Shown here: in pieces, positions 7,484-24,899 of the stretch
Position numbering within the stretch: position 1 is the first letter of the stretch
How the letters are laid out: every line of letters starts with the position of its first letter
Virus record (IMG/VR): IMGVR_UViG_3300048606_000091
From: a virus
Reading direction: 5' to 3' (one strand)
DNA: 27,771 bases
The notes under the pieces: generated by a model
The model's input: only the letters and a program-made list of their open reading frames with translations
Databases searched by the model: none
What the model was told of the DNA's origin: nothing
Made by a program: the position numbers and the translations under genes

Positions 7484-7894
7484 TCAAGCGGACATGCGGT
7501 CCGGGGCACCGCCCATCACGTTGGAATCGTCGGGCAGAGACACCGCGTCACCGGCACACGCGGCGACGGCCGACTCGGGGGCATAGATGGCCGACACAGA
7601 ATCACCGTCATCGCCCCGATAACCCTGGGCGAACAGACACTCGGCGACACCGTTGGCCGGGCCGTCATCGGGGGCAGGCACCCGGTACTCGGGGCCGCCA
7701 TATGAGGCCAGAGAAACGGCCTGAGCGGCAGCGTGCGGGGCCTCCTGGTGGGAGGTGACCGACAGGGCCACGAAGACCACGAATGCGGCCACGGCCAGCA
7801 CAGCGGGGATCAGGCGAGAGGCCAGGGAGATGGGCAGGACTGGGCCCACCACGCGCGGGACGATCGGCAGGTTCGGGATTTCGGTGTTCGTCAT
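7484..7894 (-). CDS. Membrane-anchored hypothetical protein (MTNT cassette)
   Basis: 136 aa, one TM helix, extracytoplasmic part with CL..QGY.G. Confidence 0.8.
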   Translation of the reverse strand: MTNTEIPNLPIVPRVVGPVLPISLASRLIPAVLAVAAFVVFVALSVTSHQEAPHAAAQAVSLASYGGPEYRVPAPDDGPANGVAECLFAQGYRGDDGDSVSAIYAPESAVAACAGDAVSLPDDSNVMGGAPDRMSA

Positions 7895-7944
7895 AAGACA
7901 AAACTAGCATAGGCGAGCAAGGATAGCAAGGCCAGTTTTCAGGC

Positions 7945-7976
7945 AAAAAAAGGCCCCCCTGCAGAGAGGGGGGTCC
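7945..7976 (-). terminator. Intrinsic terminator
   Basis: GC hairpin followed by T7 on the minus strand, just after the 7989 stop. Confidence 0.8.
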
Positions 7977-7988
7977 AGGGAAGGGGGG

Positions 7989-8159
7989 TCAGTCGCGCTG
8001 GCCCAGAGCGAACAGACGGCGGTCGATTTCGACCAGCGCCCGGCGGGAAATCCCGGATGCGGCCGGATCGGTGGAGTGGCGCACGTGGGCCTTCAGCTGG
8101 CCCTCCAGGGCAAACAGCTGGTTGACGTTGAGGCTGGCGAGAGATGCGATGTTCGTCAT
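7989..8159 (-). CDS. Small hypothetical protein (MTNI cassette)
   Basis: Hand-translated 56 aa MTNIASLASLNVNQLFALEG...ALGQRD; has its own promoter and terminator; below the ORF-track cutoff. Confidence 0.8.
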   Translation of the reverse strand: MTNIASLASLNVNQLFALEGQLKAHVRHSTDPAASGISRRALVEIDRRLFALGQRD

Positions 8160-8221
8160 AACACAAAGCTACACGAGCAAGGCGAGCAAGTCAAGCATTT
8201 CAGCAAGATTCTTTTTGGAGC

Positions 8222-8252
8222 AAAAAAGAGGCCCCTCCGGAGAGGGGCCTCT
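8222..8252 (-). terminator. Intrinsic terminator
   Basis: AGAGGCCCCT..AGGGGCCTCT stem with a T tract. Confidence 0.85.
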
Positions 8253-8264
8253 GAGGGAAGGGGG

Positions 8265-8504
8265 TCAGGCAGGGAACCGACGTCCCACCAAATGCCAAGC
8301 CTCGGAACGGGCACCGGGGCCGGCACCCGGATCGGCCAGGATGACCTCGGTGTAGATCTTTCCATTGCCCAACGGGGTCGAGTGAACGGTGATCTTTGCC
8401 GCCTTGCGAGTCCGCGCGAAATTCACCGCGTCCAGCACATCGACATAGGTGTCGGTCGACAACGCGCCGTAGAAAGTGGGGGCCTCAGTGGTGGTGTTCG
8501 TCAT
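8265..8504 (-). CDS. Hypothetical protein (MTNT cassette)
   Basis: 79 aa, flanked by cassette promoter and terminator. Confidence 0.8.
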   Translation of the reverse strand: MTNTTTEAPTFYGALSTDTYVDVLDAVNFARTRKAAKITVHSTPLGNGKIYTEVILADPGAGPGARSEAWHLVGRRFPA

Positions 8505-8555
8505 GACACAAAACTAGCATAGGCGAGCAAGGATAGCAACACCCAATTTTCGAGC

Positions 8556-8585
8556 AAAAAAAGGCCCCCTCGGGATGAGGGGGCC
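8556..8585 (-). terminator. Intrinsic terminator
   Basis: GGCCCCCTC-ATCCC-GAGGGGGCC plus T7. Confidence 0.85.
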
Positions 8586-8589
8586 GTGG

Positions 8590-8784
8590 TCAGGGCCGGG
8601 CCATCAGCCACAAGAAACCACCGATGAAAGTGGCCCCGCCGCCGATGATCGCGCCGAGCAAAGGAAGGGCGAACCAGCCGGTGGCCGGGCTGATCAGGCA
8701 CAGCCCGATGATCGCGAAAAGCAAGATCGGCAAACCAACATTCAGGAAGGCGAAACCATCGCGCTCCCACCCGGCGGCGATCAC
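8590..8784 (-). CDS. Small membrane protein, translationally coupled
   Basis: 64 aa, two TM segments; GTG start overlaps the TGA of the 38-aa MTNT peptide (GTGA). Confidence 0.65.
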   Translation of the reverse strand: MIAAGWERDGFAFLNVGLPILLFAIIGLCLISPATGWFALPLLGAIIGGGATFIGGFLWLMARP

Positions 8785-8897
8785 AGCGCCAGGAAAACGC
8801 GAGAGCGGGTGCGGACCGGGGCGGCCGGAGCCTTGGGCGCGGGGGTCGGGTACGAGGGGGCAGGGAAGGGGCGGCTGGCGGAGCTGGTGTTCGTCAT
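8781..8897 (-). CDS. 38-aa Pro-rich peptide (MTNT cassette)
   Basis: MTNTSSASRPFPAPSYPTPAPKAPAAPVRTRSRVFLAL; directly follows a cassette promoter. Confidence 0.7.
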   Translation of the reverse strand: MTNTSSASRPFPAPSYPTPAPKAPAAPVRTRSRVFLAL

Positions 8898-9059
8898 AGG
8901 ACAACACTAACATGGCAAGGCGAGCAAAACAAGAGGTCCAGCAAAATTGTTTTCAGGCCAGCAAACGAGCCCTGAGAGCAAGGCTAACAAGATCGGTAAG
9001 GCGAGCAAGGGAAAGGCCCCCGAACCGAGGTCCGGGGGCCAGATGGGCGAGTGAGAGGG

Positions 9060-9335
9060 TCAGGCGACCGGAGCACGGCGGGCATAGTCCGAGAGAGCCT
9101 CGGCAGCGGCGCAGAGCATGTCGGAACGAGCCTCCAGGCCCAGCCCGGTCAGCACGGCGAACGACTCGGCACCCCGGTCCTCGAAGTCGACCCAACCGAG
9201 GTCGGCCAGCCGCGCGGCCAGCCCGTACTCCCAGCCGGCGAGCCGCGAGGTCGAGACCGGGAACCGGAACATCAGGGGCGGAGCGGCCAGGGAGTCATCG
9301 AGGGACAGGGACCGGGGGGAGGTGGTGTTCGTCAT
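9060..9335 (-). CDS. Hypothetical protein (MTNT cassette)
   Basis: 91 aa; promoter at 9342-9370, hairpin at ~9015-9040. Confidence 0.8.
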   Translation of the reverse strand: MTNTTSPRSLSLDDSLAAPPLMFRFPVSTSRLAGWEYGLAARLADLGWVDFEDRGAESFAVLTGLGLEARSDMLCAAAEALSDYARRAPVA

Positions 9336-9427
9336 AGGACAACACTAACATGGCAAGGCGAGCAAAGCAAGAGGTCCAGCAAGATTGTTTTGGAGCCCCC
9401 CGAACCGAGGTCCAGGGGGCCAACCAA

Positions 9428-9757
9428 CTACCGGGAGCCCGTGCGGAAACCCACGTGAACCGAGGCCGGGATGATCGACCGGGCCAGCACGGCGAGCCCC
9501 TCGACATCCTCGGGGGCGCACGCGACCAGCCACGCGCCATCGGGAGAGCCGGAGAACTCGACCACCCGGGGGTCGGCGACCAGCGCGGTGCGCCACGCTT
9601 CGGGGGCCTCGTTTTTGACCCAACGGCCACCGACCACGATCGAGCCGCTGGCCAGGTGGATGATCGACAGCCGCCACGGGGTGGGGCCGAACGGGATGCG
9701 GCGATCCGACAGCGGGCGGTTGACGCGAGAGATGAATGGGATTTCAGTGCTCGTCAT
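9428..9757 (-). CDS. Hypothetical protein (MTST cassette)
   Basis: 109 aa starting ATGACGAGCAC 7 nt after TAGTGT; the longer track start runs through the promoter. Confidence 0.8.
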   Translation of the reverse strand: MTSTEIPFISRVNRPLSDRRIPFGPTPWRLSIIHLASGSIVVGGRWVKNEAPEAWRTALVADPRVVEFSGSPDGAWLVACAPEDVEGLAVLARSIIPASVHVGFRTGSR

Positions 9758-9850
9758 AAAAGCAACACTACACGAGCAAGGCGAGCAAGTCAAGAGGTCC
9801 AGCAAGATTGTTTTGAGGGCCCGCAACCGAGGTCACGAGCCCCCAACCGA

Positions 9851-10225
9851 TCAACGAAGATCCGCGTACTGGCCGACCGAGAGATCATCAAAGGTCGGGC
9901 GATCCACGAACACAGAGCCGGTTTCACCCTCGGAGGTCCGCAGGTCCACCCGGAACGCCTCGGGCACATCCTCGTCGCCATAGATCGGGGTCGAGATGTC
10001 GATGTCACCATCAGCATCGGTGTCGATGTCGATCGATGAGACCTCCACGATTTCCGTGTGGGCCGGCACGACGACCAGCGCGTCCACCCGACCGGAGGTC
10101 ACGGCGTTGGCGGAGCTGATGACCATGAAAGCGATCAAGCCCACGATGGCCGCCACGGTGGCGACCAGCAGAGCGGCAACGGGGTCGATGGAGGAGAGGC
10201 GGCGGGCAATTCCGGTGTTCGTCAT
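9851..10225 (-). CDS. Membrane-anchored hypothetical protein (MTNT cassette)
   Basis: 124 aa; N-terminal TM helix then an acidic beta-rich domain. Confidence 0.8.
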   Translation of the reverse strand: MTNTGIARRLSSIDPVAALLVATVAAIVGLIAFMVISSANAVTSGRVDALVVVPAHTEIVEVSSIDIDTDADGDIDISTPIYGDEDVPEAFRVDLRTSEGETGSVFVDRPTFDDLSVGQYADLR

Positions 10226-10280
10226 GACACAAAGCTACACGAGCAAGGCGAGCAAGTCAACAGGTCCAGCAAGATTGTTT

Positions 10281-10379
10281 TCAGCGTGGGCAGGCACACA
10301 CGATGACCAGCCGACACCCGGGGCACGGGATGGGCTGGGGGTTCAGGCCAGCCCACCACGCACGCAAGCGAGTGATCAT
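10281..10379 (-). CDS. 32-aa Cys-rich peptide, translationally coupled
   Basis: MITRLRAWWAGLNPQPIPCPGCRLVIVCACPR; TGATG overlap with the upstream stop. Confidence 0.45.
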   Translation of the reverse strand: MITRLRAWWAGLNPQPIPCPGCRLVIVCACPR

Positions 10380-10666
10380 CAACTGACCGTGTTGACCAGC
10401 GCGGACAGCACGGCGGAGAACTGGACCTCCGAGGCACACGACAGCCGCACCCGGCCGGTCTCGATCAGGTAGGTGCCAGAGCCATTCCAGCGCGGCCGGT
10501 GAGCCATCAGGATGACCTCCCAGCACCCATCGGCGTCCAGGATGGACAGAGCGAGCATCTTCGAGCTGTGGTGAAACAAGCCGCTCGCGCCATTGAGGGT
10601 GAAGCCGAGAGCCTGGGCCCACTGGCGCTGGCGATCCATGACCGGGGAAAGCGTGGTGTTCGTCAT
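10379..10666 (-). CDS. Hypothetical protein (MTNT cassette)
   Basis: 95 aa from MTNTTLSP. Confidence 0.8.
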   Translation of the reverse strand: MTNTTLSPVMDRQRQWAQALGFTLNGASGLFHHSSKMLALSILDADGCWEVILMAHRPRWNGSGTYLIETGRVRLSCASEVQFSAVLSALVNTVS

Positions 10667-10773
10667 AAGAGAAACACTACACGAGCAAGGCGAGCAAGTC
10701 AAGCATTTCAGCAAGATTGTTTTCAGGCAAAAAAGAGACCCGACTCCAGGGGAGCCGGGCCGGGTGGATGGGG

Positions 10774-11118
10774 TCAGACGGACAGGATCGCCACCGCGCG
10801 ACGGATCAGGGCCAGCGACACGCCGGTCGCGTCCATCTCGACCTTGCGCGCGTCGGCATACGGGGAGCTGACCAGCTCGGCCAGGTCCGCGCCACCGATG
10901 GAAGCGAGCACGGTCCACTTCCGAGCACCCGCCGCGCCGGAGAGCACAGACACCCGGGCGCCCGACTGATCCGAGTAGGAATCCCGGTCCACCACGACCT
11001 GCACGACCTCACCGTTGACGTGGAAGGTCTCGGTGAAGATCACGCGCTGGCTCGACTTGCGGGTGAAGGAGCGGTCAACGGAGGTGAAGGGCTGGGCGAC
11101 TGCTGCGGTGTTCGTCAT
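10774..11118 (-). CDS. Hypothetical protein (MTNT cassette)
   Basis: 114 aa from MTNTAAVA; hairpin plus T tract at ~10728-10762. Confidence 0.8.
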   Translation of the reverse strand: MTNTAAVAQPFTSVDRSFTRKSSQRVIFTETFHVNGEVVQVVVDRDSYSDQSGARVSVLSGAAGARKWTVLASIGGADLAELVSSPYADARKVEMDATGVSLALIRRAVAILSV

Positions 11119-11233
11119 AGGACAACCATACCCTGGCAAGGCGAGCAAGTCAAGCATTTTGCCAAGATTGTTTTGAGAGACGACTGAGGCCCCGCAACCG
11201 GGAGGTCACGGGGCCCGTCGAACGGAGAGGGGG

Positions 11234-11578
11234 TCAGCCCAGCACGACCAGGTCAGCGGCTGCCCACGCGGCCTCCAGGCGAGCCTGACCAGCCTCGGTC
11301 AGGCGGTAGGTCACCCGGCCATCCTGCTCGCCGGAGACCCATCGGCGCTCGGTGACCAGCCCGTGATCCACGAACACGAGGATGGCGGTACGGCGCTCGA
11401 CAGAGAAACCGGACAGGTCGGCGGAGTACGCCTTGGCGGCAACCGAGGCCACCCAGTTCAGGTACCGATACGGGGTGGCGATGACAGTCAGATCGGTGGT
11501 GAAGCTCGGGACCGCGTCCACGAACTCGACGTGATCGAAGTTGTCGGTGGCCTCGGGGGTGTTTTCGATGTTCGTCAT
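11234..11578 (-). CDS. Hypothetical protein with a winged-HTH-like C-terminus (MTNI cassette)
   Basis: 114 aa; GLV..RRW..GRVTYRLTEAG resembles the wing/C-terminal motif of PadR/MarR-type wHTH proteins. Confidence 0.7.
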   Translation of the reverse strand: MTNIENTPEATDNFDHVEFVDAVPSFTTDLTVIATPYRYLNWVASVAAKAYSADLSGFSVERRTAILVFVDHGLVTERRWVSGEQDGRVTYRLTEAGQARLEAAWAAADLVVLG

Positions 11579-11692
11579 AAGAAGAACACTACACGAGCAA
11601 GGCGAGCAAGTCAACAGGTCTAGCAAGATTGTTTTGAGCAAGCGAAAGGGCCCGCAACCGAGGTCACGGGCCCTGAGGGTCGGATGATCTTT

Positions 11693-12010
11693 TTACCAGG
11701 TCAGCGCGTCCGTGTAGGAGCCGAGTTCGATGATCTCGCCCTGGGGCATCTCGAAGCCCTGCGAGCCGGCGTCCAGCACCTCGCCGAGCGTGCCATTCCA
11801 ATACGGGCCACGCGGCGCGGTCGCGCTGATCGTCACCGATCGCTCGTCCCGCACCCAGGTGGTCAGCGACCGAACGAAGGCCAGGAACTCCTGCCAGCTC
11901 TCATACTCGGCCCACTCGTAAGAGTCGCCCTCGACCTGCTCGATCTTGCGCTCGATGGCAGCCTGCACAGCTTTGACAACGTCCTGGGCGGTGAATTCGG
12001 TGTTCGTCAT
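11693..12010 (-). CDS. Hypothetical acidic protein (MTNT cassette)
   Basis: 105 aa. Confidence 0.8.
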   Translation of the reverse strand: MTNTEFTAQDVVKAVQAAIERKIEQVEGDSYEWAEYESWQEFLAFVRSLTTWVRDERSVTISATAPRGPYWNGTLGEVLDAGSQGFEMPQGEIIELGSYTDALTW

Positions 12011-12123
12011 GACACAAAGCTACCAGCTACAGGCCAGCAAGTCAAGCATTTCAGCAAGATTGTTTTCAGCGGACATGAGAGAAGCCCCGGACACCTTGCG
12101 GCATCCGGGGCTCGGTGGGCAGG

Positions 12124-12399
12124 TCAGATACCGAGTAGGTAATCCAGCTCGATCTCAGCGGCGGAGCGAGCCCGGTCCAGCGCGTCAGAGCCGCCCGAGG
12201 TGAGATCGAGCAACCGGGTTCGGCCGTCAACGCTGAACCGAACGGTGATGGCGCCCGCGTCGACCAGGGTGCGGATGGTCGCGTCCACGCGTCGGTCGAC
12301 CTGCAGCACACGCAGCGACCGACCATGATCGCCGCCCGCGCCCGCGTCGATGCGAGAGAGCAGATCGAAGGGAGTTTCAACAACCACTGTGTTCGTCAT
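12124..12399 (-). CDS. Hypothetical protein, possibly wHTH-like (MTNT cassette)
   Basis: 91 aa from MTNTVVVE; IRTLVDAGAI...LLDLTSGG pattern; hairpin at ~12083-12112. Confidence 0.75.
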   Translation of the reverse strand: MTNTVVVETPFDLLSRIDAGAGGDHGRSLRVLQVDRRVDATIRTLVDAGAITVRFSVDGRTRLLDLTSGGSDALDRARSAAEIELDYLLGI

Positions 12400-12439
12400 A
12401 GGACAACCATACCCTGGCAAGGCGAGCAAGTCAAGCATT

Positions 12440-12742
12440 TCAGCCGAGAAGTTTGTCGAGATCGATCTGCGGCAGACCACGCCAGACCTCCTTGACCACC
12501 TGCTCGGGGCTGTCGTCGGTCCACAGAGGATGCTCCGGGCCGATGAACAGCCCAGCCATCTCCGAGACCTCCACGCGCGTGTCCGCAAACACAGCGCGCA
12601 CCCGGATGGTCCGGCGGAAGCCCAGCCACAAGGTGGAGATCTTCGTGACCAACAGGAGCCGGCCGGTCAGCTCGATCGGGGCGAACATCGGGTGATATTG
12701 CACGAAGTCATTCTCGTCGAACGACGGCTGCCACTTGGTCAT
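12440..12742 (-). CDS. Hypothetical protein
   Basis: 100 aa from MTKWQP; ATGA-coupled to the upstream MTNT gene. Confidence 0.7.
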   Translation of the reverse strand: MTKWQPSFDENDFVQYHPMFAPIELTGRLLLVTKISTLWLGFRRTIRVRAVFADTRVEVSEMAGLFIGPEHPLWTDDSPEQVVKEVWRGLPQIDLDKLLG

Positions 12743-12999
12743 GATCGGCGGGTGATGGTGATCGAATACTCCGAGCCGTCCATGACCCGGACGACCAGAC
12801 CTCGGTCCCGAGACAAGATCGTGTAGTCCTCGAAAGTGGTCACGGCCCGGACCTCGTCCTCCAGAGCCTCCGCTTCCTCCTGGGGCGAGCCTTCGAGCAG
12901 TTGCTGCAACGCGCGCTCGATCAGCACCTCGATGGTGATCTCCGGCGGCGCCGGGTAGACCGCGTCCTGCATTTCCTGGAAGAGCTTCGTGTTCGTCAT
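12739..12999 (-). CDS. Hypothetical acidic protein (MTNT cassette)
   Basis: 86 aa. Confidence 0.8.
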   Translation of the reverse strand: MTNTKLFQEMQDAVYPAPPEITIEVLIERALQQLLEGSPQEEAEALEDEVRAVTTFEDYTILSRDRGLVVRVMDGSEYSITITRRS

Positions 13000-13079: not shown

Positions 13080-13090
13080 CACCCGGATGG

Positions 13091-13486
13091 TCAGCTGCAG
13101 GCGTAGTAGTCGACAGAGTCCACGATCATGAGCTGGGTGGCGATGCCATACGGAGCCTGCACCCCGGCATAGCCCTTGTCCTTGAGGCAGCTCACCGTGC
13201 CAGGCGTGGTGATATTCACGTACACGTACTGCGGGTTGGTGAACGGGGTGAACGTGCCGTTCCCGCCGTCATGCGTGATCGAGAGCGTGCCACCGGGGAC
13301 CTTGTAGCCCTGACCCGCGTCGGGGATCGGGTTGTGCGGGCCCCAGAGCAGGAACGCGCCAGCTGTCAGAGCGACTGCTACCAGTGCGACCACGATCAGC
13401 TGGGCGAGCCGGCTGAGCTTGAGGGAAGGGACAGGGATGGAGATCTGCTTGCGGGGGGTGGGCTCTACGGCCTCTGTGTTCGTCAT
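13091..13486 (-). CDS. Membrane-anchored hypothetical protein (MTNT cassette)
   Basis: 131 aa, one TM helix; CL..KGY.G motif loosely shared with 7484..7894. Confidence 0.8.
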   Translation of the reverse strand: MTNTEAVEPTPRKQISIPVPSLKLSRLAQLIVVALVAVALTAGAFLLWGPHNPIPDAGQGYKVPGGTLSITHDGGNGTFTPFTNPQYVYVNITTPGTVSCLKDKGYAGVQAPYGIATQLMIVDSVDYYACS

Positions 13487-13780: not shown

Positions 13781-14388
13781 GCAACTGGCTTCGGCTGCCG
13801 GATCTCATATGTCACAGTCATATCCCACGCCAATCGAGCCGTCTTCAGCCATGCTGCCACAGCTTCGAGGTCATGCATTTGGATCCCTACGTAGGGGTCG
13901 ACCTCGTGCAAAAGTGTCGGAAGGTTGCGACGTGAGTTATCAAACCCGGAGGCAGCTCGCTTGCGCGCGTGATGCGTGAAACTATCATCTAACCACGCGA
14001 GAGGTCGGCCAGCCGCGAAGCTCTGCATCGCCGGGAACTTCCACAGCTTCGAGCCTGCTCGATGTCCGTGAAAGTCCACCCACGGTAACCGTGGTAAACC
14101 GAGAGCCGGCGAGACGATGGTGTTTGCGTTGTGCTCCCACAACGATGCCCAGACAAGCTCAACGTCGTGCTCGATCGAGAACGCGCGGAGCATCCCCCCG
14201 TGCTTGGGCGACAGGAACAGATTCGAGTACGGAATCCATGTCGAGCCGGGCACATAGCTCACCTGGTTACGCCACGGCACCGACCGGAAGCCTCGGGCGA
14301 GCACGTTCTTGATCTCAGCCTTGTTGTGGGCTCGTGGATTGAGGGGACCATCGATGTCGATAGCCAGAATGGGCGTAGTGTTCGTCAT
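13654..14388 (-). CDS. HAD-superfamily phosphatase (Swiss Army Knife RNA-repair-like HAD type) (MTNT cassette)
   Basis: Motif I LAIDIDGPLN, motif II LVWASLW, conserved K, motif IV LAWLDD; promoter TTGACA-17-TATACT. Confidence 0.85.
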   Translation of the reverse strand: MTNTTPILAIDIDGPLNPRAHNKAEIKNVLARGFRSVPWRNQVSYVPGSTWIPYSNLFLSPKHGGMLRAFSIEHDVELVWASLWEHNANTIVSPALGLPRLPWVDFHGHRAGSKLWKFPAMQSFAAGRPLAWLDDSFTHHARKRAASGFDNSRRNLPTLLHEVDPYVGIQMHDLEAVAAWLKTARLAWDMTVTYEIRQPKPVACLPSTKYRSTRKRFAYAGTTFGRMTDEEFADAIGLDGSPPF

Positions 14389-14469: not shown

Positions 14470-15531
14470 CTACCCTCGCACACCGGTCCACACAATCTCG
14501 GTCAGCTCACGCTGGTATCGATCCTCGATGCGGTGGAACCAGTCACCCGGGATACCCGCCGGGTCATACGCGCCCGCGAGAGCACCGGTGATGGCAGCCG
14601 TCGAATCACTGTCGCCACGCGTCCAGGCAGCCGCTCGGATCGAGTCCACGAAGCCGAGGTCGGCATCGAACACACCCACGGCCATGGCCACAGCCTCGCG
14701 AGCCCGCCACCCCTGGCCCGAGTAGTCCGCCGGGTCGAAAGTGAACAGCTCTCGCGTCTTCAAGGCAGCCGTCAGATCGCCGGCAGCCATCGCAATCCAC
14801 CGGACGTGCTCGATGCCCTCGCGAACGTAGTCTTCCGGAGATTCGTGGTGCTTGCTCTGGTCATCGCTCTCGACTACCAGCTTCCACAAGATCGAGCCCA
14901 GCCCGATCGAGTCGTACGCCATGTCCTCGTGTGCATCCGCCCACTCGGACAGGAAGCCGACAGCTCCACCGGGAGCCACGTTGCCTCGGGCGATCTCTCG
15001 GGTCAGAGAGGCCAGAGCGGCAGCCGCGAACGCATTCTCCGCCGGACCGTGCGTGAGCACAGCCTGCATCGCTGCCACGGTGAACAGCTGCTCGTCCGAG
15101 ACCTTGTCCGACAGACCAACCCACGCCGCGCGCATGACCGAACCGCAGCCAGCCGAGGTGTGCGAGGTCGCCTGCTGCCAGCCACCCAGTCCCATCCGAG
15201 AAAGCTTGGCCAGCGCGGACATGCAGGTGTTGCCCGGAGCACGAGCCCAGCCAGTGGCCTGCTCGTCATACCAGGTGTCGAACTCGACGGCCAGCTCCTG
15301 GCGGAGCAGTCCGAGGTGCTCACCGTCCCACGCCTCGATCGCCTTCATGACGTAGATGGACATCTGGGTGTCATCGGTCACCCGGAACCGCGCCGGGGCG
15401 ACCGGACCCTTGCCGTCCATGGGCGGGTGCGCGAACTCGATGGGATCACCATATGCATCTCCGCACGCCAGACCCCACACGGCTCCGGCGAATCGGTTCT
15501 GGTCAATCTGCACGTTCTCTGTGTTCGTCAT
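14470..15531 (-). CDS. ADP-ribosylglycohydrolase (DraG/ARH family) (MTNT cassette)
   Basis: GLACGDAYG, TDDTQM, GxGSVMR, TH and GDSDSTAAITGAL motifs. Confidence 0.93.
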   Translation of the reverse strand: MTNTENVQIDQNRFAGAVWGLACGDAYGDPIEFAHPPMDGKGPVAPARFRVTDDTQMSIYVMKAIEAWDGEHLGLLRQELAVEFDTWYDEQATGWARAPGNTCMSALAKLSRMGLGGWQQATSHTSAGCGSVMRAAWVGLSDKVSDEQLFTVAAMQAVLTHGPAENAFAAAALASLTREIARGNVAPGGAVGFLSEWADAHEDMAYDSIGLGSILWKLVVESDDQSKHHESPEDYVREGIEHVRWIAMAAGDLTAALKTRELFTFDPADYSGQGWRAREAVAMAVGVFDADLGFVDSIRAAAWTRGDSDSTAAITGALAGAYDPAGIPGDWFHRIEDRYQRELTEIVWTGVRG

Positions 15532-15621: not shown

Positions 15622-16083
15622 TCAGAGCTTGATCAGGAACCCTACGCCGTGGTTCACACCGCCGCAGCTGCAGACGCACAGCGGGCCGGTGGCGAACTCG
15701 CAGCGGCTGTCGCAGTGGTGGTGCTCGGCGTCCGAGACGGTGCCTACCAGCTGCTTGGCCTTGACCTTGACGGTCTTGCCGTGGTTGCTGCAGTGCAGCT
15801 TGAACGGGTGGTCCTTGACCGCGTGGGTCTTGCAGCCCTTGACATAGCACTTCGCGGAGAAGCGACCGTACGCCTTGGGCTGGTGGTCGATGACCTTAGG
15901 AGCCTCAACCGTGATCTCGGTGGTCGCGGGGACCTCAACCACCATCGCACCGAAGTACTTGTTGTGGAAGCAGTCCTTCACGTCCTTGACGGTGGGGTGG
16001 TACTTCGGAGCCTGGAAGGTGGAGCAGTTGCCGCACTTGATCTGGAGGGGGGACTCGGTGGCTGCCTGCGCTGTGTTCGTCAT
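15622..16083 (-). CDS. Cys/His-rich multi-zinc-finger protein (MTNT cassette)
   Basis: 153 aa with CxxC...H...C, CxxxxC..H, CxxH and CDxRCxxAxGxxCxCxCGGxNHG. Confidence 0.8.
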   Translation of the reverse strand: MTNTAQAATESPLQIKCGNCSTFQAPKYHPTVKDVKDCFHNKYFGAMVVEVPATTEITVEAPKVIDHQPKAYGRFSAKCYVKGCKTHAVKDHPFKLHCSNHGKTVKVKAKQLVGTVSDAEHHHCDSRCEFATGPLCVCSCGGVNHGVGFLIKL

Positions 16084-16327: not shown

Positions 16328-16659
16328 CGCTTCCCGCTCTTGACCCACTCGCAGGAGCCGTGCAGCTCCACCACCTTGTCGGAGGGCTTGACGGTGAACA
16401 CACCCGGGCCCTGCAAGTTGCCGTTCTGCGAGATCGTCCCGAACGAGCCGCCCGAGAAGTCCTTGTCGACCTCGAAGTAGCAGCTCTCGCGGGCCAGGTT
16501 CGCTGTCTTGTAGGTGCCTGGCGGGATGTCATCGCCCACCACGTACATGCCAGCCGCGAAGCTCACCGGTGGTGCGGGGACGACCTCGGCCGCGTGCGCG
16601 AACGGTGCGTTCAGCACGACCAGCAGGGCGGAGCCCAGGATCAGGATGAAAAGCCTCAT
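16324..16659 (-). CDS. Secreted protein
   Basis: Signal peptide ending AHA, then GMYVVGDDIPPGTYKT..CY..GSCEW, a pattern common in actinobacterial exported proteins; GGAAGG SD. Confidence 0.8.
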   Translation of the reverse strand: MRLFILILGSALLVVLNAPFAHAAEVVPAPPVSFAAGMYVVGDDIPPGTYKTANLARESCYFEVDKDFSGGSFGTISQNGNLQGPGVFTVKPSDKVVELHGSCEWVKSGKR

Positions 16660-16805
16660 GATATTGTGAACCTTCCAGTGAATCGGGGATTGGTTTTGCT
16701 GGATATGTATGGAGAACCCCAGAGCCTCTCGCGACGAGTCTCTGGGGTTCTCTGTGTTCGTCGTAGTAGTAATGTAGCACAGGTCAGCAAGGCAAGCAAG
16801 TAGTT

Positions 16806-18245: not shown

Positions 18246-18392
18246 TCACTCGCCTCGCAGCGAACGACGGATGGCAGCCTGGCGGCCATCACGGCGGGTG
18301 GCCTCGCGGCGCACCTTACCCGAGGGGATGGGCTGGGCCGCGTTGCTGGCGCGGAGCCCCTGGATGGCCTGAACCTTCGTGGTGTTCGTCAT
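18246..18392 (-). CDS. 48-aa basic peptide (MTNT cassette)
   Basis: MTNTTKVQAIQGLRASNAAQPIPSGKVRREATRRDGRQAAIRRSLRGE; promoter TTGCTA-17-TAGTCT at 18399-18427. Confidence 0.75.
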   Translation of the reverse strand: MTNTTKVQAIQGLRASNAAQPIPSGKVRREATRRDGRQAAIRRSLRGE

Positions 18393-18871: not shown

Positions 18872-18907
18872 TTGAAGAGCTAGCCCCGCCGAGCTGGGCT
18901 AGCTCAG

Positions 18908-18990
18908 TACCGGTCACAGGAATCGAACCTGCACTCCCGAAGGAACGAGAACCTAAATCTCGCGCGTCTGCCTAGTTCCGCCACACCGGC
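18908..18990 (-). tRNA. trnL: tRNA-Leu(UAG)
   Basis: Anticodon arm CGAGA-TTTAGGT-TCTCG, variable arm TTCC-TTCG-GGAG, T loop TTCGATT. Confidence 0.93.
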
Positions 18991-19007
18991 ATGTTTAGTT
19001 GTAAGGA

Positions 19008-19060
19008 GGACAGCGGCTCAACGCGGAGTTTATGACGAACACCTTGCGGAGCCGCCGTCC
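19008..19060 (-). ncRNA. Candidate small antisense RNA complementary to the shared 5' tag of the MTNT genes
   Basis: GGACGGCGGCTC/GAGCCGCTGTCC 12-bp stem (G-U only on the minus strand) plus CGC/GCG, apical region GGTGTTCGTCATAAA = reverse complement of TATGACGAACACC; lies between two minus-strand tRNAs. Confidence 0.75.
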
Positions 19061-19062
19061 AG

Positions 19063-19136
19063 TCGGGATAAGAGGATTCGAACCTCTGGCCCCTCGCTCC
19101 CAAAGCGAGTGCTCTGCCAAGCTGAGCTACACCCCG
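19063..19136 (-). tRNA. trnP: tRNA-Pro(UGG)
   Basis: CGGGGTG/TATCCCG-A acceptor, anticodon arm CTCGC-TTTGGGA-GCGAG. Confidence 0.95.
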
Positions 19137-19157
19137 TTATTTAATTGCTGTGCCCCC

Positions 19158-19169
19158 GATGTTATACCC
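19158..19169 (-). promoter_or_regulatory. Putative second-class promoter -10 (GGGTATAACATC) for the right tRNA/sRNA cluster
   Basis: An identical 12-mer lies at 1260-1271 upstream of the left tRNA cluster; both sit in hairpins. Confidence 0.45.
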
Positions 19170-19193
19170 ACCGGGGGCCCGTCTGCAACGCGG

Positions 19194-19502
19194 TTACGCC
19201 TCCCGCGCCCGAGCCGGCTCGAATCCAAGATCTCCGAGCACCCGCCCGGAGGCGTGATAGGCGAGCGTCTCGATCAACTCCTTGGTCAGCGCGCCCAGCT
19301 CGTCCACCGGGAGCCGGAACAGTACGGTCGTCTCCCGTTCCTCTCGGGACCACTGCACGGCGCCACCCTTGGTGATCGGGTACTGGCTCACAACCCGGGT
19401 GATCTCGACCTCGTCGATGCGCGCATCCGAGGCGTTGGCCTCGCCCCGCCAGAAGTCTCGGACGCGGTAGAGGGTGGTTACATGTACCTGTGTGTTCGTC
19501 AT
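19194..19502 (-). CDS. Hypothetical protein (MTNT cassette)
   Basis: 102 aa from MTNTQVHV; promoter TTGACG-TGCTCGCCTTGCCAGGG-TATGAT at 19509-19537. Confidence 0.8.
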   Translation of the reverse strand: MTNTQVHVTTLYRVRDFWRGEANASDARIDEVEITRVVSQYPITKGGAVQWSREERETTVLFRLPVDELGALTKELIETLAYHASGRVLGDLGFEPARAREA

Positions 19503-19676
19503 GCAAGTATCATACCCTGGCAAGGCGAGCACGTCAAGCATCTGTCCAGCAGATCTTTTAGCGTTCCGATTTCCGGAACAAGATCATCCCATTTGCCCCA
19601 AAGGACATTCCTGTTTCTAAATTACACGCTTCGGCTTCAGGGTTTGCAAACCCTCAAGTAAATCCCAGGAGTCACT

Positions 19677-19922
19677 CTAGTTATCATCCGAGAAGCGGGA
19701 ATGACCATGGATCCGAGAGCCCATCCAGAACATCAAACAGACCGACGCGGCGACGTACATCCACCACGGGATCGCGTCCCAACCCGGGATCCACAGCGGC
19801 ACCAAGATCTTGGCGGCGAGCCCCAGGAGGGCACCGAAGAACAACTTCACGACACACTCGCGCACGTCATTCTCGAAACCGGTGCGGCGGCGGACCGCCT
19901 TCTTGTCCTCACTCAGGCTCAT
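19677..19922 (-). CDS. Membrane protein
   Basis: 81 aa, two TM segments; ATG 7 nt after GGGTATAAC. Confidence 0.7.
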   Translation of the reverse strand: MSLSEDKKAVRRRTGFENDVRECVVKLFFGALLGLAAKILVPLWIPGWDAIPWWMYVAASVCLMFWMGSRIHGHSRFSDDN

Positions 19923-20164
19923 AAGTCCAGTTATACCCTGACAAGTACAGAAAAGGAAAGCACAGTTTTAGAAAGGTATAACAAGTCAACCTTTTTCCAA
20001 AAGTGCCTTGATCAAAAGCGGGCCCCTGTGTGGGGGCGAATTCGCCTTTGGATTTGCTTGAGTGCATGTGTTCCCAGCTCAGAGGCTGTGTAGCAATCCA
20101 GCAAAAAATTTGGGGATGATCCAGATCCGTGTAGCAAGGTCCAGCAACAGCCTTTGCTTGAGTG

Positions 20165-20791
20165 CTACTTCTTACCGGACTTCGAAGATGAGGACCCGGA
20201 GGAGACCGAGCGGGATGCCGGAGCCTTGGGGATGGCGGCTGGTTTCGGGGCTGAGAAGCCCTGTGACGAACCGGCTGAGGGTTTGCGGCCGGGAGCAGCG
20301 GAATCCAGGCTGCGAGCCGCTACGGGCGAACCAGAGGCTCTTGCGTTGGGGGCTCCGAAGCCGCCACGAGTGATGGTCGAGGATCTCTGCTCAGCGGCGA
20401 GGGTGGGCACCCGGACAGAGGATGCGGGCGCTGAGCCCACAGGCAGGGAATACGGGGCACGACCACGGTCTATGTGCAGCGTGGAGACGCGAGCGGGGCG
20501 AGTGGGCACATAGACCGTACGATCCACCGGGTAGCCCACCAGCACCACGTCAACATCGGAATCATACGAGTGATACGGGCGATAATTCCAGAGAAACCCC
20601 TGGTTGGAGCCGCCATCACCGATAGGGCAGTAATCATCGGGCACCCGGATACCGCGACCGTCAACGCACACCGCTGAGGCATACAGATCATCGTCATATG
20701 CCGTGTTGGTGTACGAAGAGCCATTACCGCAGGCGGTGAGCGCTGTGATGGCGAGCAGGATGGTGGGGAGGGCTGCGAGGTATCGATTCAT
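20165..20791 (-). CDS. Lipoprotein with an RGGFG tail (DUF1190/YgiB-like)
   Basis: Lipobox LTAC, CVD..G.RVPDD.C, ITRGGFG followed by a Ser/Gly-rich tail. Confidence 0.78.
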   Translation of the reverse strand: MNRYLAALPTILLAITALTACGNGSSYTNTAYDDDLYASAVCVDGRGIRVPDDYCPIGDGGSNQGFLWNYRPYHSYDSDVDVVLVGYPVDRTVYVPTRPARVSTLHIDRGRAPYSLPVGSAPASSVRVPTLAAEQRSSTITRGGFGAPNARASGSPVAARSLDSAAPGRKPSAGSSQGFSAPKPAAIPKAPASRSVSSGSSSSKSGKK

Positions 20792-20929
20792 GGAGGAGTA
20801 CTACCCGTTGGTGTCATCATTCGCGTGTGAGGGATGAAGTCTTCAGGTTGGGCCAGGATGAAGCTGAGTGCGATGTTTTCCCACGTCGTGAGGGCTGTGA
20901 ACGGTATGGGTCGGGCAGTCGGATGGAGC

Positions 20930-22290
20930 GGGAAGACAGGGAACGGTCTGTCACGTGGGATCGAGAGGGACGGCAAGGATTGTCACCCGGGCTGGGGGCG
21001 TGGAGGCAGCGATCTGGGAAGTCGGGCCAGGAACGACTCGACAGTGCCATGTCACGGCGGATGAGCAGGGGGTGGGGCGCGGTGGATAGTCAAGTGGCTT
21101 GGGCAGCGAAGGGATGGGGCGGAGAAGTCGCCAAGATGGGCGGCGGGTGGGGATGGGAAGTCGCTTTGACCAGGGGCGGGGCGCGTCAGCTTGGGAAGTC
21201 GATTCGGGTCGCTTGGGGATGAGATGGGGTTGTCGGAAGGCATGGCGTGACGCGGATTGGAATGTCACCGAGGGGCGTGAAGGGATGGGTCGGGAAGTCG
21301 TCGGGGTTGAGGTGGGCGGATCTGGAAAGTCGGGGGACGCGGAGCGGGTTGCCCATGGGAAGTCGGGCGCGGTGAGACGGCGCGAGCTGACATGTCATGG
21401 GGGACGGTGGGATCTCGGGTAGGCATGGGCTGTCGGCTCGGATTGGCACGGCGGGGATGAGACCTAGTCGATTGGGTCGGGGGGATACGTCCAGCTTGGT
21501 CGTCCGGATCGGGCGGGCTGGCGGATGGCCGGGGGAGTCGCATAGCGATGGGTTGGCATGGGCGGGGATGTCACACGAGGGGGGTCGAGCAGGCACGGGC
21601 TGGTCTGTCGATTGGCGCGGAGAGCCAAGAGTGGGGAAGCGGAGTCGGCACGGGTTGTCACCCGGAGCGGGTCGACTGGGGGTGCGAGGGATTGTCGGAA
21701 CGATCTGGGACGGCATGAGTTGACCTAGGGCTGTCGCGGGGTCTGAGTCGGCATGACGGGGATTGTCGGGCGGGGGAGAAGCGGCCCGGATTGTCAGATG
21801 GCACGACATGGCTCGGAGCAGGTCGGGTTGTCGAGCAGGCGTGGAGGGAGACGGCAGGGGAGGTCACGCGGGATGGAATGGCGTGCGTTGCCGGGGGGAT
21901 GTCGGGTGGGAAGGCTAGGCACGAACCGGGGTAGCACCCGGGTTGGCTCAGTCGGACGGGCAGGGCGGGAGAGGCTTGCACAAGCGGGGGCGCGGGAAGT
22001 CGATCGGAAAAGGCTCGAAGAGGCCCGGAAAGTCGGATGGACGAGCAGGGGAACGGCGCGGCGAGAGTTGTCGATCGGGTAGCAGGTGAAGCGGCCGGGC
22101 TCGTGGGGCCTTGTCGAACTGGCGAGAGCAGACGAGCGATGCGCTGAGCCGGGCTGTCGGATGGGGCGGACGGCGGGGCAGAGGGGTAGTCACGAGAGCT
22201 GACGTGATGGGTGCAGAGCCGGCGGGGTATGTCGTCGGGATCGGACTGGCGAGAGCATCGATTGGGCGGGGAAAGGAACGTCGATCTGCG
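20930..22290. repeat. Degenerate ~33-37-nt periodic array (GG-n3-GTC core), apparently non-coding
   Basis: Recurring GGGAAGTCG/GGATTGTCG/GGGCTGTCG; G-rich plus strand; ORFs in all frames are low-complexity Pro/Arg/Gly-rich. Confidence 0.6.
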
Positions 22291-22320
22291 AGGCGTTTAG
22301 CGCTGCCCACCAGCAGGGAC

Positions 22321-22563
22321 TCAGTGCGCCCGGTACCCATCTCCGGCTGACTCAATACTACCCGCCAGCTCGGCTGCCTCGGTGTGCACATCTCGGATGA
22401 TCCAAGCTCCCGACCAGATGGACAGCAGCCCCGAGCAGGTCAGCAGCGACAGCCAGGCCATCATGCTCGTCACCCAGACGATGGAGCAGCAGAACGAGAT
22501 GACCGCCGCGACGATCAGCGCGGTGAACACCGGGGTGGTGAGCAACTTAGACAACGCCGACAT
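22321..22563 (-). CDS. Membrane protein
   Basis: 80 aa, two TM segments. Confidence 0.65.
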   Translation of the reverse strand: MSALSKLLTTPVFTALIVAAVISFCCSIVWVTSMMAWLSLLTCSGLLSIWSGAWIIRDVHTEAAELAGSIESAGDGYRAH

Positions 22564-22699
22564 ACCAGACCACCAGCCCCAGAATGGCGGCGGTGCCGGT
22601 GAACACGAAGACCTCGATCGCGCGATAGGTGTTGCCCAGCGCGTACTGGCGCAGCCCCACGGAGACGATCATCGCCCAGAGCAGCCCGACCAGGGTCAC
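22547..22699 (-). CDS. Small membrane protein
   Basis: 50 aa from a GTG (GTGA overlap), two hydrophobic segments. Confidence 0.55.
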   Translation of the reverse strand: MTLVGLLWAMIVSVGLRQYALGNTYRAIEVFVFTGTAAILGLVVWYVGVV

Positions 22700-22779
22700 A
22701 GCCCACCGTCCTGATGATGCAGCCAGATCAGCAGCCACAGCCCGAGCGCGAGCAGTGCGATCGGGAGCAGCCAGATCAT
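22696..22779 (-). CDS. 27-aa membrane peptide
   Basis: MIWLLPIALLALGLWLLIWLHHQDGGL; coupled by 4-nt overlaps at both ends. Confidence 0.55.
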   Translation of the reverse strand: MIWLLPIALLALGLWLLIWLHHQDGGL

Positions 22780-23159
22780 CGCAGGTCCGGGGACAGGCAG
22801 TTCATCCAGGAGATCTCCTCGAACCGAGAGGGATCGCGGTAGAGCACCGACGCCATGCCTGAGAAAATGTCTACCCTTGCCACCGTGCCGTACCGGCCGA
22901 AACAGTCGATGACCGGGTCGCCTATGCGGGGGCACCACCAGCGGGACTCCGGAGCGGCGCGGCCCTGGGCCAGCCGGTACCGAGCGTAGGAATAGACCGC
23001 GCGAGCAGGCAGGACCAGCCACCGATACCAGGCCATCGACAGCAGCTCCCACGGCCACGCGTGGGAATCAGGGGACGCCTGGGCAAGCTTTTTGGTCCGT
23101 GCGATGAACGATAGTTCCGCCCGAACCTGTCGTGCCGCACTAGCCAGTGAGCGGTTCAT
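22776..23159 (-). CDS. Hypothetical protein with a C-terminal SH3/KOW-like segment
   Basis: 127 aa from MNRSLA; RIGDPV..GRYGTVARV. Confidence 0.65.
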   Translation of the reverse strand: MNRSLASAARQVRAELSFIARTKKLAQASPDSHAWPWELLSMAWYRWLVLPARAVYSYARYRLAQGRAAPESRWWCPRIGDPVIDCFGRYGTVARVDIFSGMASVLYRDPSRFEEISWMNCLSPDLR

Positions 23160-23350
23160 GTCACGCTCGTTTTTCTCTTCGAGGGAGCGACGATGACCTC
23201 CAGCTCCACGATGAAATACCACCGCGTGACCAGCCGGCCGTCCAACAGCACGTGCGCGATCGGCGCCGAGCGGAACGTGCCCAGCTCCACCACCTTGCCC
23301 AGCTTGCCTGAGGGGGTGAGCACCCGGTTACCGATCACAGGCTCGCTCAT
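23156..23350 (-). CDS. Small SH3/KOW-like protein
   Basis: 64 aa from MSEPVIGNRV..SGKLGKVVEL; AAGGAG SD. Confidence 0.7.
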   Translation of the reverse strand: MSEPVIGNRVLTPSGKLGKVVELGTFRSAPIAHVLLDGRLVTRWYFIVELEVIVAPSKRKTSVT

Positions 23351-23538
23351 GCGGTGCTCCTTACCCGGGGACGGATGACCTCCAGGGTGGTGGCCAGATA
23401 GGTCTTGGTGGTGCCGTCCGTCTCCAGGATGACGCTGGCGCTCGGCGGGCGAAGACCGTCGTGCAGATCGACCAGCGCGATCACCCGACCCAGCAGCCCA
23501 CACCGGGTGAGCACTCGATCATGCAGCCGAGGGAGCAT
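23347..23538 (-). CDS. Small SH3/KOW-like protein
   Basis: 63 aa; RLHDRV..CGLLGRVIAL..LEVI. Confidence 0.7.
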   Translation of the reverse strand: MLPRLHDRVLTRCGLLGRVIALVDLHDGLRPPSASVILETDGTTKTYLATTLEVIRPRVRSTA

Positions 23539-24899
23539 CAGTACGCACCCATCCAGCGGGTGGGGCGGGCAGCTCTCTCCTGGCAGACCTTGCAGCGACG
23601 ACGCGGTTCCGTCGTGACCACACCCATGTCGCCACAGACCTCGCAGGGGAGCCCGCTCTGCAAGTCCGAGATCTGACGCTGCAGATTGGTGATTCGATCA
23701 GCGATCTGACCGGTGGCTGCATCCAGCTCGGCTACCGCGTCCACCAGACCCGTGTCGCTTGCCCTGCACGCCGCGCAGTAATGCCGGGGACCAGCCACGA
23801 AGCGCCCGCACGTCGAGCACCGAGACCGGCTGAACCTCTTCCGTGGCTTGGCATACGACACCAGCATCGCCGCGCTCAAGAGCAGCAGCGATGCCCCCAG
23901 CAGCGAGATCTGCACATCCTGACGACCGAAGCCTCCCGCCACCAGGCTCGCGGCAAGCGCCGTTACGGCCGTGCGCCACAGCACCACCGGGCCAACCCAC
24001 TTGAGCAGCCGGCCGAACATCCTGAACGGGAACACCAGCACCTTGGCGGACAGCACCACGAGCGTGCGCAGCGCCTGCATCCAAGACTTGCCCACCTCCC
24101 AGACCAGCGCGATCAACCCATTGATCCCCGCGAGCAGCAAGTCACGAACGCGTTCTGACCTGGTCAGAGGGGGTGGTGGCGGTGGTCCAGGCTCGGGCAG
24201 GTGCCAGGCGAACGGAGCCACGCCCAGCGGATCCCAGCGCGGTGGGCGAGAGCGGTCCGCCAGCAGCAACAGCTCCTGAGCCTCCCGTTCAGCCTGGGCT
24301 TCCTCCTCCAACTGAGCCGCGTACATAGCAGCCAGCCTCTTGTTCTCCGCGCGCAACTTGTGCTTGAGTGGGCCCGCATCGCCGGTTCCCTGGGCCTTAT
24401 GCTGATCTTCCATCAAGCCAGCGACAACCTTCAGCTGCGCCTCAATACCCGGAGTGAGCTGAACCTTCCCGTTCTCGATTCGCACACTAGAGCAGCAGCG
24501 GCACTCCGCGAGCCGCACCCGCTCAGTCGCAGACTTACCGGGGACAGAAACAACGAAGCCGCCGGCCGTCCGCGCGACGAACATCTGCACCGTGCCGAAG
24601 GAGGATCCGTAGATCGTGAAATGTGGGCTCAACCCATTGGTACCACCCCGGTTCAGCGCCCACGGCACGCACCAGCCCGTCTCACCCACACCCATGTCCA
24701 TGATCTCACGACCACGGTGACGGGGACGCTTCGTCCTCTGCGGGTTACGCGCCGGAGGACCCTCCGCGTCCAGGGCATCAACCTCAGCACAGGTGATTTT
24801 GTGATCGACCTCAGTGGTGACCGGCGGGCACTTAGGCTCATACATCCAGCTCGCTCGGACGTTGCCCGGGTAGGACTTGCCGAAGTTAGTGTTCGTCAT
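23538..24899 (-). CDS. Large membrane protein with coiled-coil and zinc-ribbon segments (MTNT start)
   Basis: 453 aa; TM segments, poly-Pro linker, CxxC pairs; ATGACGAACAC 6 nt after TAGGAT. Confidence 0.75.
   Translation of the reverse strand: MTNTNFGKSYPGNVRASWMYEPKCPPVTTEVDHKITCAEVDALDAEGPPARNPQRTKRPRHRGREIMDMGVGETGWCVPWALNRGGTNGLSPHFTIYGSSFGTVQMFVARTAGGFVVSVPGKSATERVRLAECRCCSSVRIENGKVQLTPGIEAQLKVVAGLMEDQHKAQGTGDAGPLKHKLRAENKRLAAMYAAQLEEEAQAEREAQELLLLADRSRPPRWDPLGVAPFAWHLPEPGPPPPPPLTRSERVRDLLLAGINGLIALVWEVGKSWMQALRTLVVLSAKVLVFPFRMFGRLLKWVGPVVLWRTAVTALAASLVAGGFGRQDVQISLLGASLLLLSAAMLVSYAKPRKRFSRSRCSTCGRFVAGPRHYCAACRASDTGLVDAVAELDAATGQIADRITNLQRQISDLQSGLPCEVCGDMGVVTTEPRRRCKVCQERAARPTRWMGAY

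Follow-up and report, generated by a model that had tools for sequence, protein, structure and literature searches.

A conserved phage hairpin complementary to the shared start of many small genes, a candidate trans-acting antisense RNA

How could a phage address some twenty unrelated genes together, and what would read one string of letters that is repeated, nearly without change, over their start codons? The question is raised by IMG/VR virus record IMGVR_UViG_3300048606_000091, a stretch of 27,771 nucleotides (nt) which we call the window, always at its full length. An 11-nt tag beginning with ATG recurs there at the starts of mostly small genes, and its complement occurs once in the orientation of the messages, inside a hairpin between two tRNA genes. 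According to our analysis this hairpin is a real, conserved and previously undescribed phage RNA element, while its regulatory effect is what we infer. Judging from sequence, it is very likely that the hairpin RNA and the tagged mRNAs pair with each other. Of the sign and the purpose of this pairing we are less sure, and we consider it reasonably probable that the hairpin is a trans-acting antisense RNA, which pairs with the 5' ends of leaderless early mRNAs and blocks their translation.

The window is a part of a large tRNA-rich phage (13 tRNA calls by ARAGORN, 12 of them confirmed by Rfam). The labelled samples that hold its DNA are soil metagenomes, and protein matches suggest actinobacterial hosts.

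A tag at gene starts and its one complement

The first-pass annotation had listed 20 gene starts that share the tag, and each of them was found in the window sequence, all on the minus strand; 17 of the 20 carry exactly ATGACGAACAC, and the others read ATGACGAACAT (8159 and 11578) or ATGACGAGCAC (9757). A 21st sense copy, ACGACGAACAC at 16754-16764 on the same strand, was absent from that list; it has the same promoter type upstream, no ATG, and a C-A mismatch with the complement at position 2, which breaks the pair. Over these 21 copies positions 1 to 11 are near-invariant and drift begins at position 12 (C 11, A 6, T 3, G 1), as had been claimed. Allowing at most one mismatch, the window holds 22 matches to the tag, where shuffling leads one to expect 0.43; they are the 21 sense copies of the minus strand plus a reverse copy at 19032-19042, and none of 100 shuffles reached 22.

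Column counts upstream of the 21 starts reveal a TTG box near -35 and a TGNTANNNT-like box from -15 to -7, followed by variable positions from -6 to -1 and near-invariant ones from +1 to +11; no Shine-Dalgarno sequence was found in these counts before the tagged ATGs. The ATGs of the window stand 6-7 nt below the -10 box, the gap being T/C-rich, and from this spacing the tagged mRNAs are likely leaderless, with transcription starting at the A of the ATG. Most cassettes are single small genes, and in several of them a terminator-like stem stands just ahead of the next promoter.

The complement of the tag, GTGTTCGTCAT, has a single occurrence on the mRNA-sense strand of the window, at 19042-19032, and it is located inside a hairpin of 53 nt (19008-19060, minus strand). 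The 5' end of the hairpin falls just past tRNA-Pro(TGG), which lies directly upstream (19062-19136, minus), and its 3' end 17 nt short of tRNA-Leu(TAG) (18907-18990, minus), both tRNAs being ARAGORN calls. The fold (-31 kcal/mol, z -5.1; none of 200 shuffles as stable) consists of a 12-bp lower stem (19060-19049/19019-19008), a weak upper stem and a predicted 7-nt loop CGUCAUA (19037-19031). The anti-tag proper, GUGUUCGUCAU (19032-19042, minus), is the exact complement of the 11-nt tag and belongs to a 15-mer (19043-19029) that is invariant among the relatives described below. The annotation had placed the anti-tag in the hairpin loop; this holds for CGUCAU, the partner of tag positions 1-6, which lies in the open 7-nt loop, but not for the remainder, which is held in the weak upper stem. 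In the energy model, freeing the loop complement of mRNA letters 1-6 would cost 0.03 kcal/mol and freeing the full site 3.8 kcal/mol; opening of the upper stem is put at 2.3-5.9 kcal/mol, and the bare 11-bp duplex of tag and anti-tag at -15.4 kcal/mol. The predicted binding opens the upper stem only, and the 12-bp base stays. The hairpin has no Rfam family: only tRNAs appear at gathering score, and the interval 18985-19070 gives unrelated matches at E of at least 2. A mimic of an anticodon loop was considered and rejected, CAU standing at loop positions 4-6 and not 3-5 and the acceptor stem being absent.

The nearest promoter upstream of the hairpin is a tagged one, the SigA/sigma70-type TTGACG-17-TATGAT at 19509-19537 (minus), driving a tagged gene at 19194-19502 (minus; 102 amino acids, no family; exact tag 19492-19502) that is itself upstream of tRNA-Pro and the hairpin. 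From this order the hairpin is likely transcribed from the 19502 promoter, and its ends would be set by tRNA maturation, the 5' end by 3' processing of tRNA-Pro and the 3' end by 5' processing of tRNA-Leu; the tRNA end-processing enzymes are RNase Z and RNase P. A tRNA-spacer RNA of this kind is 3'ETS-leuZ of E. coli, a spacer from tRNA processing that base-pairs and sponges small RNAs with Hfq. The likeness is in the release by tRNA processing and the action by base pairing, and the difference in the proposed partners, which for the window hairpin are mRNA starts and not small RNAs.

The other exact tags, all on the minus strand, open at 7884-7894 (open reading frame, ORF, 7484-7894, 136 amino acids), 8494-8504 (79 amino acids, as all the following lengths), 8887-8897 (38), 9325-9335 (91), 10215-10225 (124), 10656-10666 (95; its homologue in the hairpin-less genome G006 starts without the tag), 11108-11118 (114), 12000-12010 (105), 12389-12399 (91), 12989-12999 (86), 13476-13486 (131), 14378-14388 (244), 15521-15531 (353), 16073-16083 (153), 18382-18392 (48) and 24889-24899 (453; behind a second promoter class, GGTAGGAT, with no -35 box). 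The product encoded from 15531, an ADP-ribosylglycohydrolase (PF03747), is the only tagged one with a confident family. The 21st copy is, in the interval 16659-16764 (minus), an ACG-tag with a strong hairpin downstream and an in-frame ATG at 16659 that has a Shine-Dalgarno-like GGAAGG; it is possibly a leadered mRNA which is still tagged, as a decoy or by recent loss of a start. An ARAGORN call of tRNA-Gly(CCC) at 13230-13321 (plus), antisense inside a tagged gene and without an Rfam match, is likely false. Within 6843-7200, a very AT-rich inverted repeat (6843-6937) beside a low-complexity (CATA/TACA)n tract separates the cassette array from the next genes, and this region could be a genome end or an origin.

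Relatives, covariation and tag variants

Does the pair of tag and hairpin recur elsewhere? A promoter-plus-tag scan of IMG/VR (100 loci) gave two further arrays, G002 with 40 promoter-linked tags and G001 (146 kb, about 48-50% GC) with 20. A metagenome scan (71 loci) adds L420, a 3.6-kb fragment in synteny that has 3 tags, its hairpin lying between the same tRNAs. These three related phage contigs (48-62% GC) each bear tags and one hairpin. In all four tag-array sequences there is one hairpin-borne complement on the sense strand, and in each it is the best-scoring enclosed CGTCAT site. The hairpin of G002 lies between tRNA-Pro(TGG) and a tRNA-Leu, as in the window, and that of G001 past the stop of a tagged gene, ahead of a terminator-like stem. 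The closest among the genomes compared is G002 (186 kb), having 9 of 32 tested window proteins and the tRNA order in common with the window; its capsid is 72% identical to that of G001 and 58% to that of Microbacterium phage Magritte, the one close cultured capsid relative, in which neither tag array nor hairpin was found. Cultured phages gave no match to the window cassette DNA, only to its tRNAs. No integrase was found in G001 and G002 by searching for PF00589 and PF07508, plasmid-type lysogeny being still possible. The 186-kb contig of G002 was also met, as L529, binned in a genome labelled Candidatus Nanopelagicales, and binning is weak host evidence.

The search with the 16-nt loop returned 34 viral loci, only G001 and G002 being genuine, 71 metagenome loci, among which L420 was new and L441 is the contig of G002, and 54 genome loci, of which only L529, again this contig, scored high. 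The exact 18-nt loop context had no viral match, and searches by ADP-ribosylglycohydrolase and by promoter motif gave no additional array. Weaker loop matches (L538, L498, L528, L543 and L514) were rejected for having no tag arrays, L514 being a gene end, and L489 as a chance match; the 11-nt complement at 180757 of G002 falls within a coding sequence, and no stem encloses it. An RNA model run over 81 sources found no match beyond its four training hairpins.

Upstream of tRNA-Pro, a conserved stretch that is not a tRNA is common to G002 and L420 (L034:9600-9720 and L420:1520-1640); ARAGORN does not call it, and it was not seen in the matching interval of the window (region 19077-19200); a further structured RNA is possible there. 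In G001 an exact tag at 106948 (minus) opens an 11-codon ORF, and a second-class promoter box follows.

Across the four phages the core 15-mer GGTGTTCGTCATAAA is invariant, with the identical predicted loop CGUCAUA, while the stems have diverged yet remain paired, and all four hairpins fold at z -3.1 to -6.2. Between the window and L420 all 12 pairs of the base stem are kept, 2 by double and 2 by single change, and 7 of 19 pairs in the four-row alignment show two-sided change. Contigs from 4 runs of 4 studies differ in stems and flanks, no difference being listed in 19029-19043, and one X10 contig, by hand reading, keeps the base stem via substitutions and insertions on both arms. The hairpin has in this way what characterises a trans-acting antisense small RNA, being encoded apart from its targets, with a conserved seed and a structure kept by covariation, which is marginal with four rows.

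A fifth case, G037 (52 kb), has no detected protein in common with the window, nor capsid, nor polymerase. Its hairpin (z -3.8) comes right past the stop of a tagged operon and carries a complement that spans 9 letters; all 7 of its ATGACG starts keep ATGACGAAC, letters 10-11 being free, and two other starts diverge earlier. The length conserved at the start thus follows the length of the complement. L067 has, at position 1046 (minus), a 10-nt start-tag complement in mRNA orientation; it lies between tagged cassettes and ahead of a terminator-like stem, is not enclosed by a strong hairpin, and is a possible sixth case.

It had been claimed at first pass that all variants of the tag are compatible with G-U pairing. 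This is correct for the three variants then listed, two C11T (8149-8159, ORF 7989-8159, 56 amino acids; 11568-11578, 114 amino acids, with a weak PadR-like match below cut-off) and one A8G (9747-9757, 109 amino acids), all on the minus strand; it fails for the 16764 copy, with which the window has 3 of 4. A or C fills 7 of the 8 tag positions that follow ATG, so that almost every transition still allows a wobble pair. When nearest promoter pairs are compared, 83 of their 175 differences (47%) are transitions, from which the wobble chance is about 0.41 per variant, and with p = 0.07 for 3/3 and p = 0.19 for 3/4 the window by itself is insufficient for the claim. The larger sample comprises 84 tags in the four hairpin phages, 67 exact and 17 single variants, and here 15 of the 17 are A>G or C>T (C11T 8, A8G 4, A10G 2, A4G 1; binomial p = 8e-5); counted as distinct changes per genome, 8 of 10 are wobbles (p = 0.015).

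For control we took nine genomes without a detected hairpin, covered whole or nearly, 7 of which had been chosen for having one exact tag. Their 55 similar starts show 3 wobble and 13 breaking single variants, so 15/17 stands against 3/16 (Fisher p = 9e-5), and 8/10 against 3/11 on distinct changes (p = 0.03). A first control (75 starts; 13 of 85 substitutions wobble) was dropped because it held L072, with a clear antisense site, L067, with its possible one, and partial loci. By the pairing model, 16 of the 17 variants would cost at most 1.3 kcal/mol.

The absence of synonymous drift at codons 2-3, noticed earlier in the window, extends to the whole sample: there are 0 such changes in 84 tags, and positions 6 and 9 are constant. 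ACG makes up 23-41% of Thr codons in tagged genes (34 of 147 in the window), and AAC 10 of 59 Asn codons in the tagged genes of G001. Most tagged proteins start with MTNT, and this sharing could be explained by selection on the N-terminal peptide as a targeting or stability signal, an explanation that we regard as highly improbable: all 17 variants alter an amino acid or the start codon, none being synonymous at codons 2-3, codon 4 does drift synonymously exactly at position 12, and the start-less copy retains the tag. The view of the annotation that selection acts on RNA-RNA pairing rather than on the MTNT peptide is supported by the wobble bias and by these absent synonymous changes.

Promoters, hairpin-less genomes and the origin of the tag

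Is the tag then a mere extension of the promoter? With a promoter profile built without the tag, tagged starts accounted for 17/17, 17/21 and 32/37 of the matches, and the untagged matches include those before tRNA-Ser in G001 and tRNA-Glu in G002; the same-type promoter ahead of tRNA-Glu in the window has no tag. Leaderless-type starts of the second promoter class, GGTAG[GT]A[CT] with no -35 box, carry a pairable tag in 4 of 27 cases. This box is seen at 5406, 20803 and 24911 of the window and at many genes in G001, G002 and G006 (74 boxes in G006), often 5-6 nt before ATG or GTG, and it is likely a middle or late promoter class. In mycobacteria, RTG at +1 suffices for leaderless initiation and no downstream motif is enriched, according to the accessible part of PMC4633059.

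Among 28 capsid relatives, many of them fragments and 12 at least 90% complete, no tag array was found, and 2 have a single promoter-linked ATGACGAA. The complete genome G006, which the capsid tree places as sister of G001 (100/98), has neither tag array nor hairpin; leaders of Shine-Dalgarno type follow most of its host-type promoters, and no antisense hairpin to these leaders was found in it. A perfect hairpin around TTTCGTCAT in G006 was rejected, as it falls within a long open frame and the genome has no ATGACG starts. G016 has leaderless-type cassettes with varied starts.

These observations bear on a reading in which the tag is an element of the DNA or translation level (an aid to promoter escape as initially transcribed sequence, an operator, a start well suited to leaderless translation or a cassette recombination junction) and the hairpin is secondary or incidental. 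Hairpin-less phages favour ATGACGAA(C) too, the upstream promoters are near-copies, and G002 has homologues for only 4 of 20 tagged window genes and G001 for none, which fits a cassette shuffling like that of the PeSL elements in the portion of PMC2839356 at hand. Such a reading may well explain the origin of the tag, but as a full account we find it unlikely. It leaves unexplained why five phages have a lone loop complement whose stems have diverged and still pair, why changes lean to A>G and C>T, why the match measures 11 nt in the four phages and 9 nt in G037, and the constancy of +1 to +11 beside the drifting -6 to -1 and spacer. The tag is also absent from same-type promoters ahead of tRNAs and from most leaderless starts of the second class. 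As to an operator, the L5-type stoperator is a 13-bp site for a phage repressor (PMC3203893, in the part available), and two things argue against the tag as such a DNA site, the G-U bias and the place of its one reverse copy within a conserved RNA fold.

Many unrelated actinophage-like contigs use the AUGACGAAC start without a hairpin, and the seed is just 6-9 nt; the main role of the hairpin might then lie outside the phage, in shutting off early genes of other phages in the same cell, or leaderless mRNAs of the host, that begin with AUGACGAAC. We hold this to be quite improbable, since it is the phage's own genes that match best (67 of 84 exact) and the match tracks the length of the own loop.

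Two other arrangements were seen in the scanned loci. In L009 of G034 (L009:8202-14456) each of six promoter-like boxes has downstream of it the same ATGCCCGGACGGACCGGGCGG leader, which precedes the apparent start and is a shared 5' element of another kind; and in G004 (L073-L075, L086) the promoter spacers between -35 and -10 are palindromic (CCCCCCAC...GGGGGG), operator-like or PeSL-like.

Proposed action and known systems compared

How would the hairpin act? We propose, for the antisense reading, that host SigA polymerase would start the tagged mRNAs at the A of the ATG, and that the hairpin would be co-transcribed with the tRNAs from the tagged promoter at 19502 and set free when the tRNA ends are processed; for G001 and G037 we would expect it as the stable 3' terminus of a tagged operon. 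The open loop CGUCAU would meet AUGACG, and the weak upper stem would then open to give a duplex of 11-12 bp. With the 5'-terminal AUG paired, loading of the 70S ribosome would fail, and decay may follow. As the product of an early promoter that builds up over time, the RNA would act as a delayed brake on the whole tagged set.

What we have described so far speaks for pairing and not for its sign, and the pairing may be real with another role, such as shielding of 5' ends, storage of mRNA, or a reversed control in which mRNA 5' ends or 11-nt abortive transcripts act on the hairpin transcript. The usual upper length of abortive transcripts is 11 nt, the length of the tag; the hairpin sits at processing or termination junctions, and the start-less copy at 16764 retains 10 of 11 letters. 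We give such roles a small though appreciable chance. Leaderless initiation needs the 5'-terminal AUG, as stated in the accessible text of PMC4633059, and should be hampered by a duplex there; the predicted binding opens the upper stem only, leaving the 12-bp base, and the downstream context varies (tRNAs in three phages, operon ends in two) while the target tag is conserved.

Several points weigh against the antisense reading itself. The transcription starts, the existence of the RNA, its ends and the direction of its effect are all inferred from the letters of the DNA. Pseudoknot-free cofolding predicts a net gain for 6 of 21 starts, a method that cannot model loop-initiated binding. Pairs are broken by 2 of the 17 variants (T2C 1, A10T 1), and the tags are duplicated cassettes and not independent, p being just 0.015-0.03 on distinct changes. 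The wobble-compatible C5T, A7G and C9T never occur in the 84 tags; the model puts the cost of C5T and C9T at 1.8-1.9 kcal/mol, and A7G would be cheap yet is absent too. Covariation of the stems is marginal with four rows, 12-28 of 500 shuffles doing as well, and the stems of G001 and G002 align poorly. No case was found of loop and tag changing letters together, only the change in length. Finally, six unrelated phage contigs (G003, G004, G005, G035, G036 and G038) have several leaderless-type genes that open with ATGACGAA(C), and the hairpin was not found in them; this start may be favoured on other grounds, the hairpin having evolved to exploit it, or else an antisense element escaped the search.

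In the literature, covering few subscription papers and no supplements, no phage RNA was found that addresses many leaderless mRNAs through a shared start tag, the available part of a 2025 review (PMC12197685) included. Two systems come close. C4 of phages P1 and P7 is described, in the accessible text, as a phage-encoded trans-acting antisense RNA cut from a longer transcript, whose loops cover translation starts (PMC5320573). Both RNAs are phage-encoded, and the loop bases of the window are complementary to the translation starts of their targets, a likeness in sequence complementarity only; but C4, as far as that source describes it, has three stem-loops, two target loops and few leadered immunity transcripts as targets in lysogeny, whereas the window phage has one hairpin and 20-40 targets, probably leaderless, with the tag within their coding sequence. 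The hairpin shows neither an Rfam match to C4 nor a three-stem fold. The small RNA s-SodF of Streptomyces coelicolor, an actinobacterium, is processed from the 3' end of an mRNA, is perfectly complementary to the 5' end of another and shortens its half-life (PMC3919588, accessible part). [quoted passage not shown] In our account the hairpin works like C4 and s-SodF and is a member of neither.

The PeSL cassettes of the T4-type phages RB49 and phi1 are small genes without assigned role behind a terminator-like stem-loop and a host-type early promoter, shuffled by recombination (PMC2839356, in the part at hand). The window likewise repeats a host-type promoter with a stem-loop ahead of small unknown genes, but PeSLs end in Shine-Dalgarno plus ATG, in that text, and the window cassettes have no Shine-Dalgarno; the same portion of PMC2839356 describes PeSLs without a shared coding tag or antisense RNA.

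The start-associated sequences (SAS) of cluster K mycobacteriophages are an asymmetric short repeat at 11-19 non-structural gene starts, described without a function; K1 phages have one copy of it in reverse (accessible part of PMC3203893). One orientation at starts with a lone reverse copy is also the pattern of the window, with 21 minus-strand copies and 1 reverse. By that source, though, the SAS is a 13-bp motif containing the Shine-Dalgarno sequence, 3-7 bp before leadered genes, and the window tag runs from the start codon onward; the SAS motif GGGATAGGAGCCC was not found 3-7 bp before starts in the column counts of the 21 window starts. In Anaya (L468, JF704106, about 59870-59885) and Adephagia (L469, JF704105, about 58682) the lone reverse SAS stands in a long hairpin on the SAS-sense strand; the loop CCUCCUAUCC is complementary to the SAS core, and the stems differ between the two phages. 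A hairpin of this kind was not found in TM4 25000-52797 or Pixie 45000-61147. We may suggest, quite tentatively and at somewhat less than even chances, that actinobacterial lytic phages have repeatedly built a one-RNA timer from an address shared by the first codons of unrelated leaderless early genes, dozens of them, and one anti-start hairpin, in the window out of a tRNA spacer, that silences the whole group, and that the same logic explains the cluster K1 SAS.

If the antisense reading is true, a 53-nt hairpin addressing 20-40 unrelated genes would be a compact and protein-free answer to early-gene shutoff, which bears on how lytic phages turn off their early genes and on how leader-free mRNAs can be regulated. 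It gives a concrete hypothesis for the SAS repeats of cluster K, which are present in cultured phages and were described in 2011 without a function. The spacers of phage tRNA clusters may be regulatory genes, and the pair of tag and hairpin would offer a portable switch for leaderless expression.

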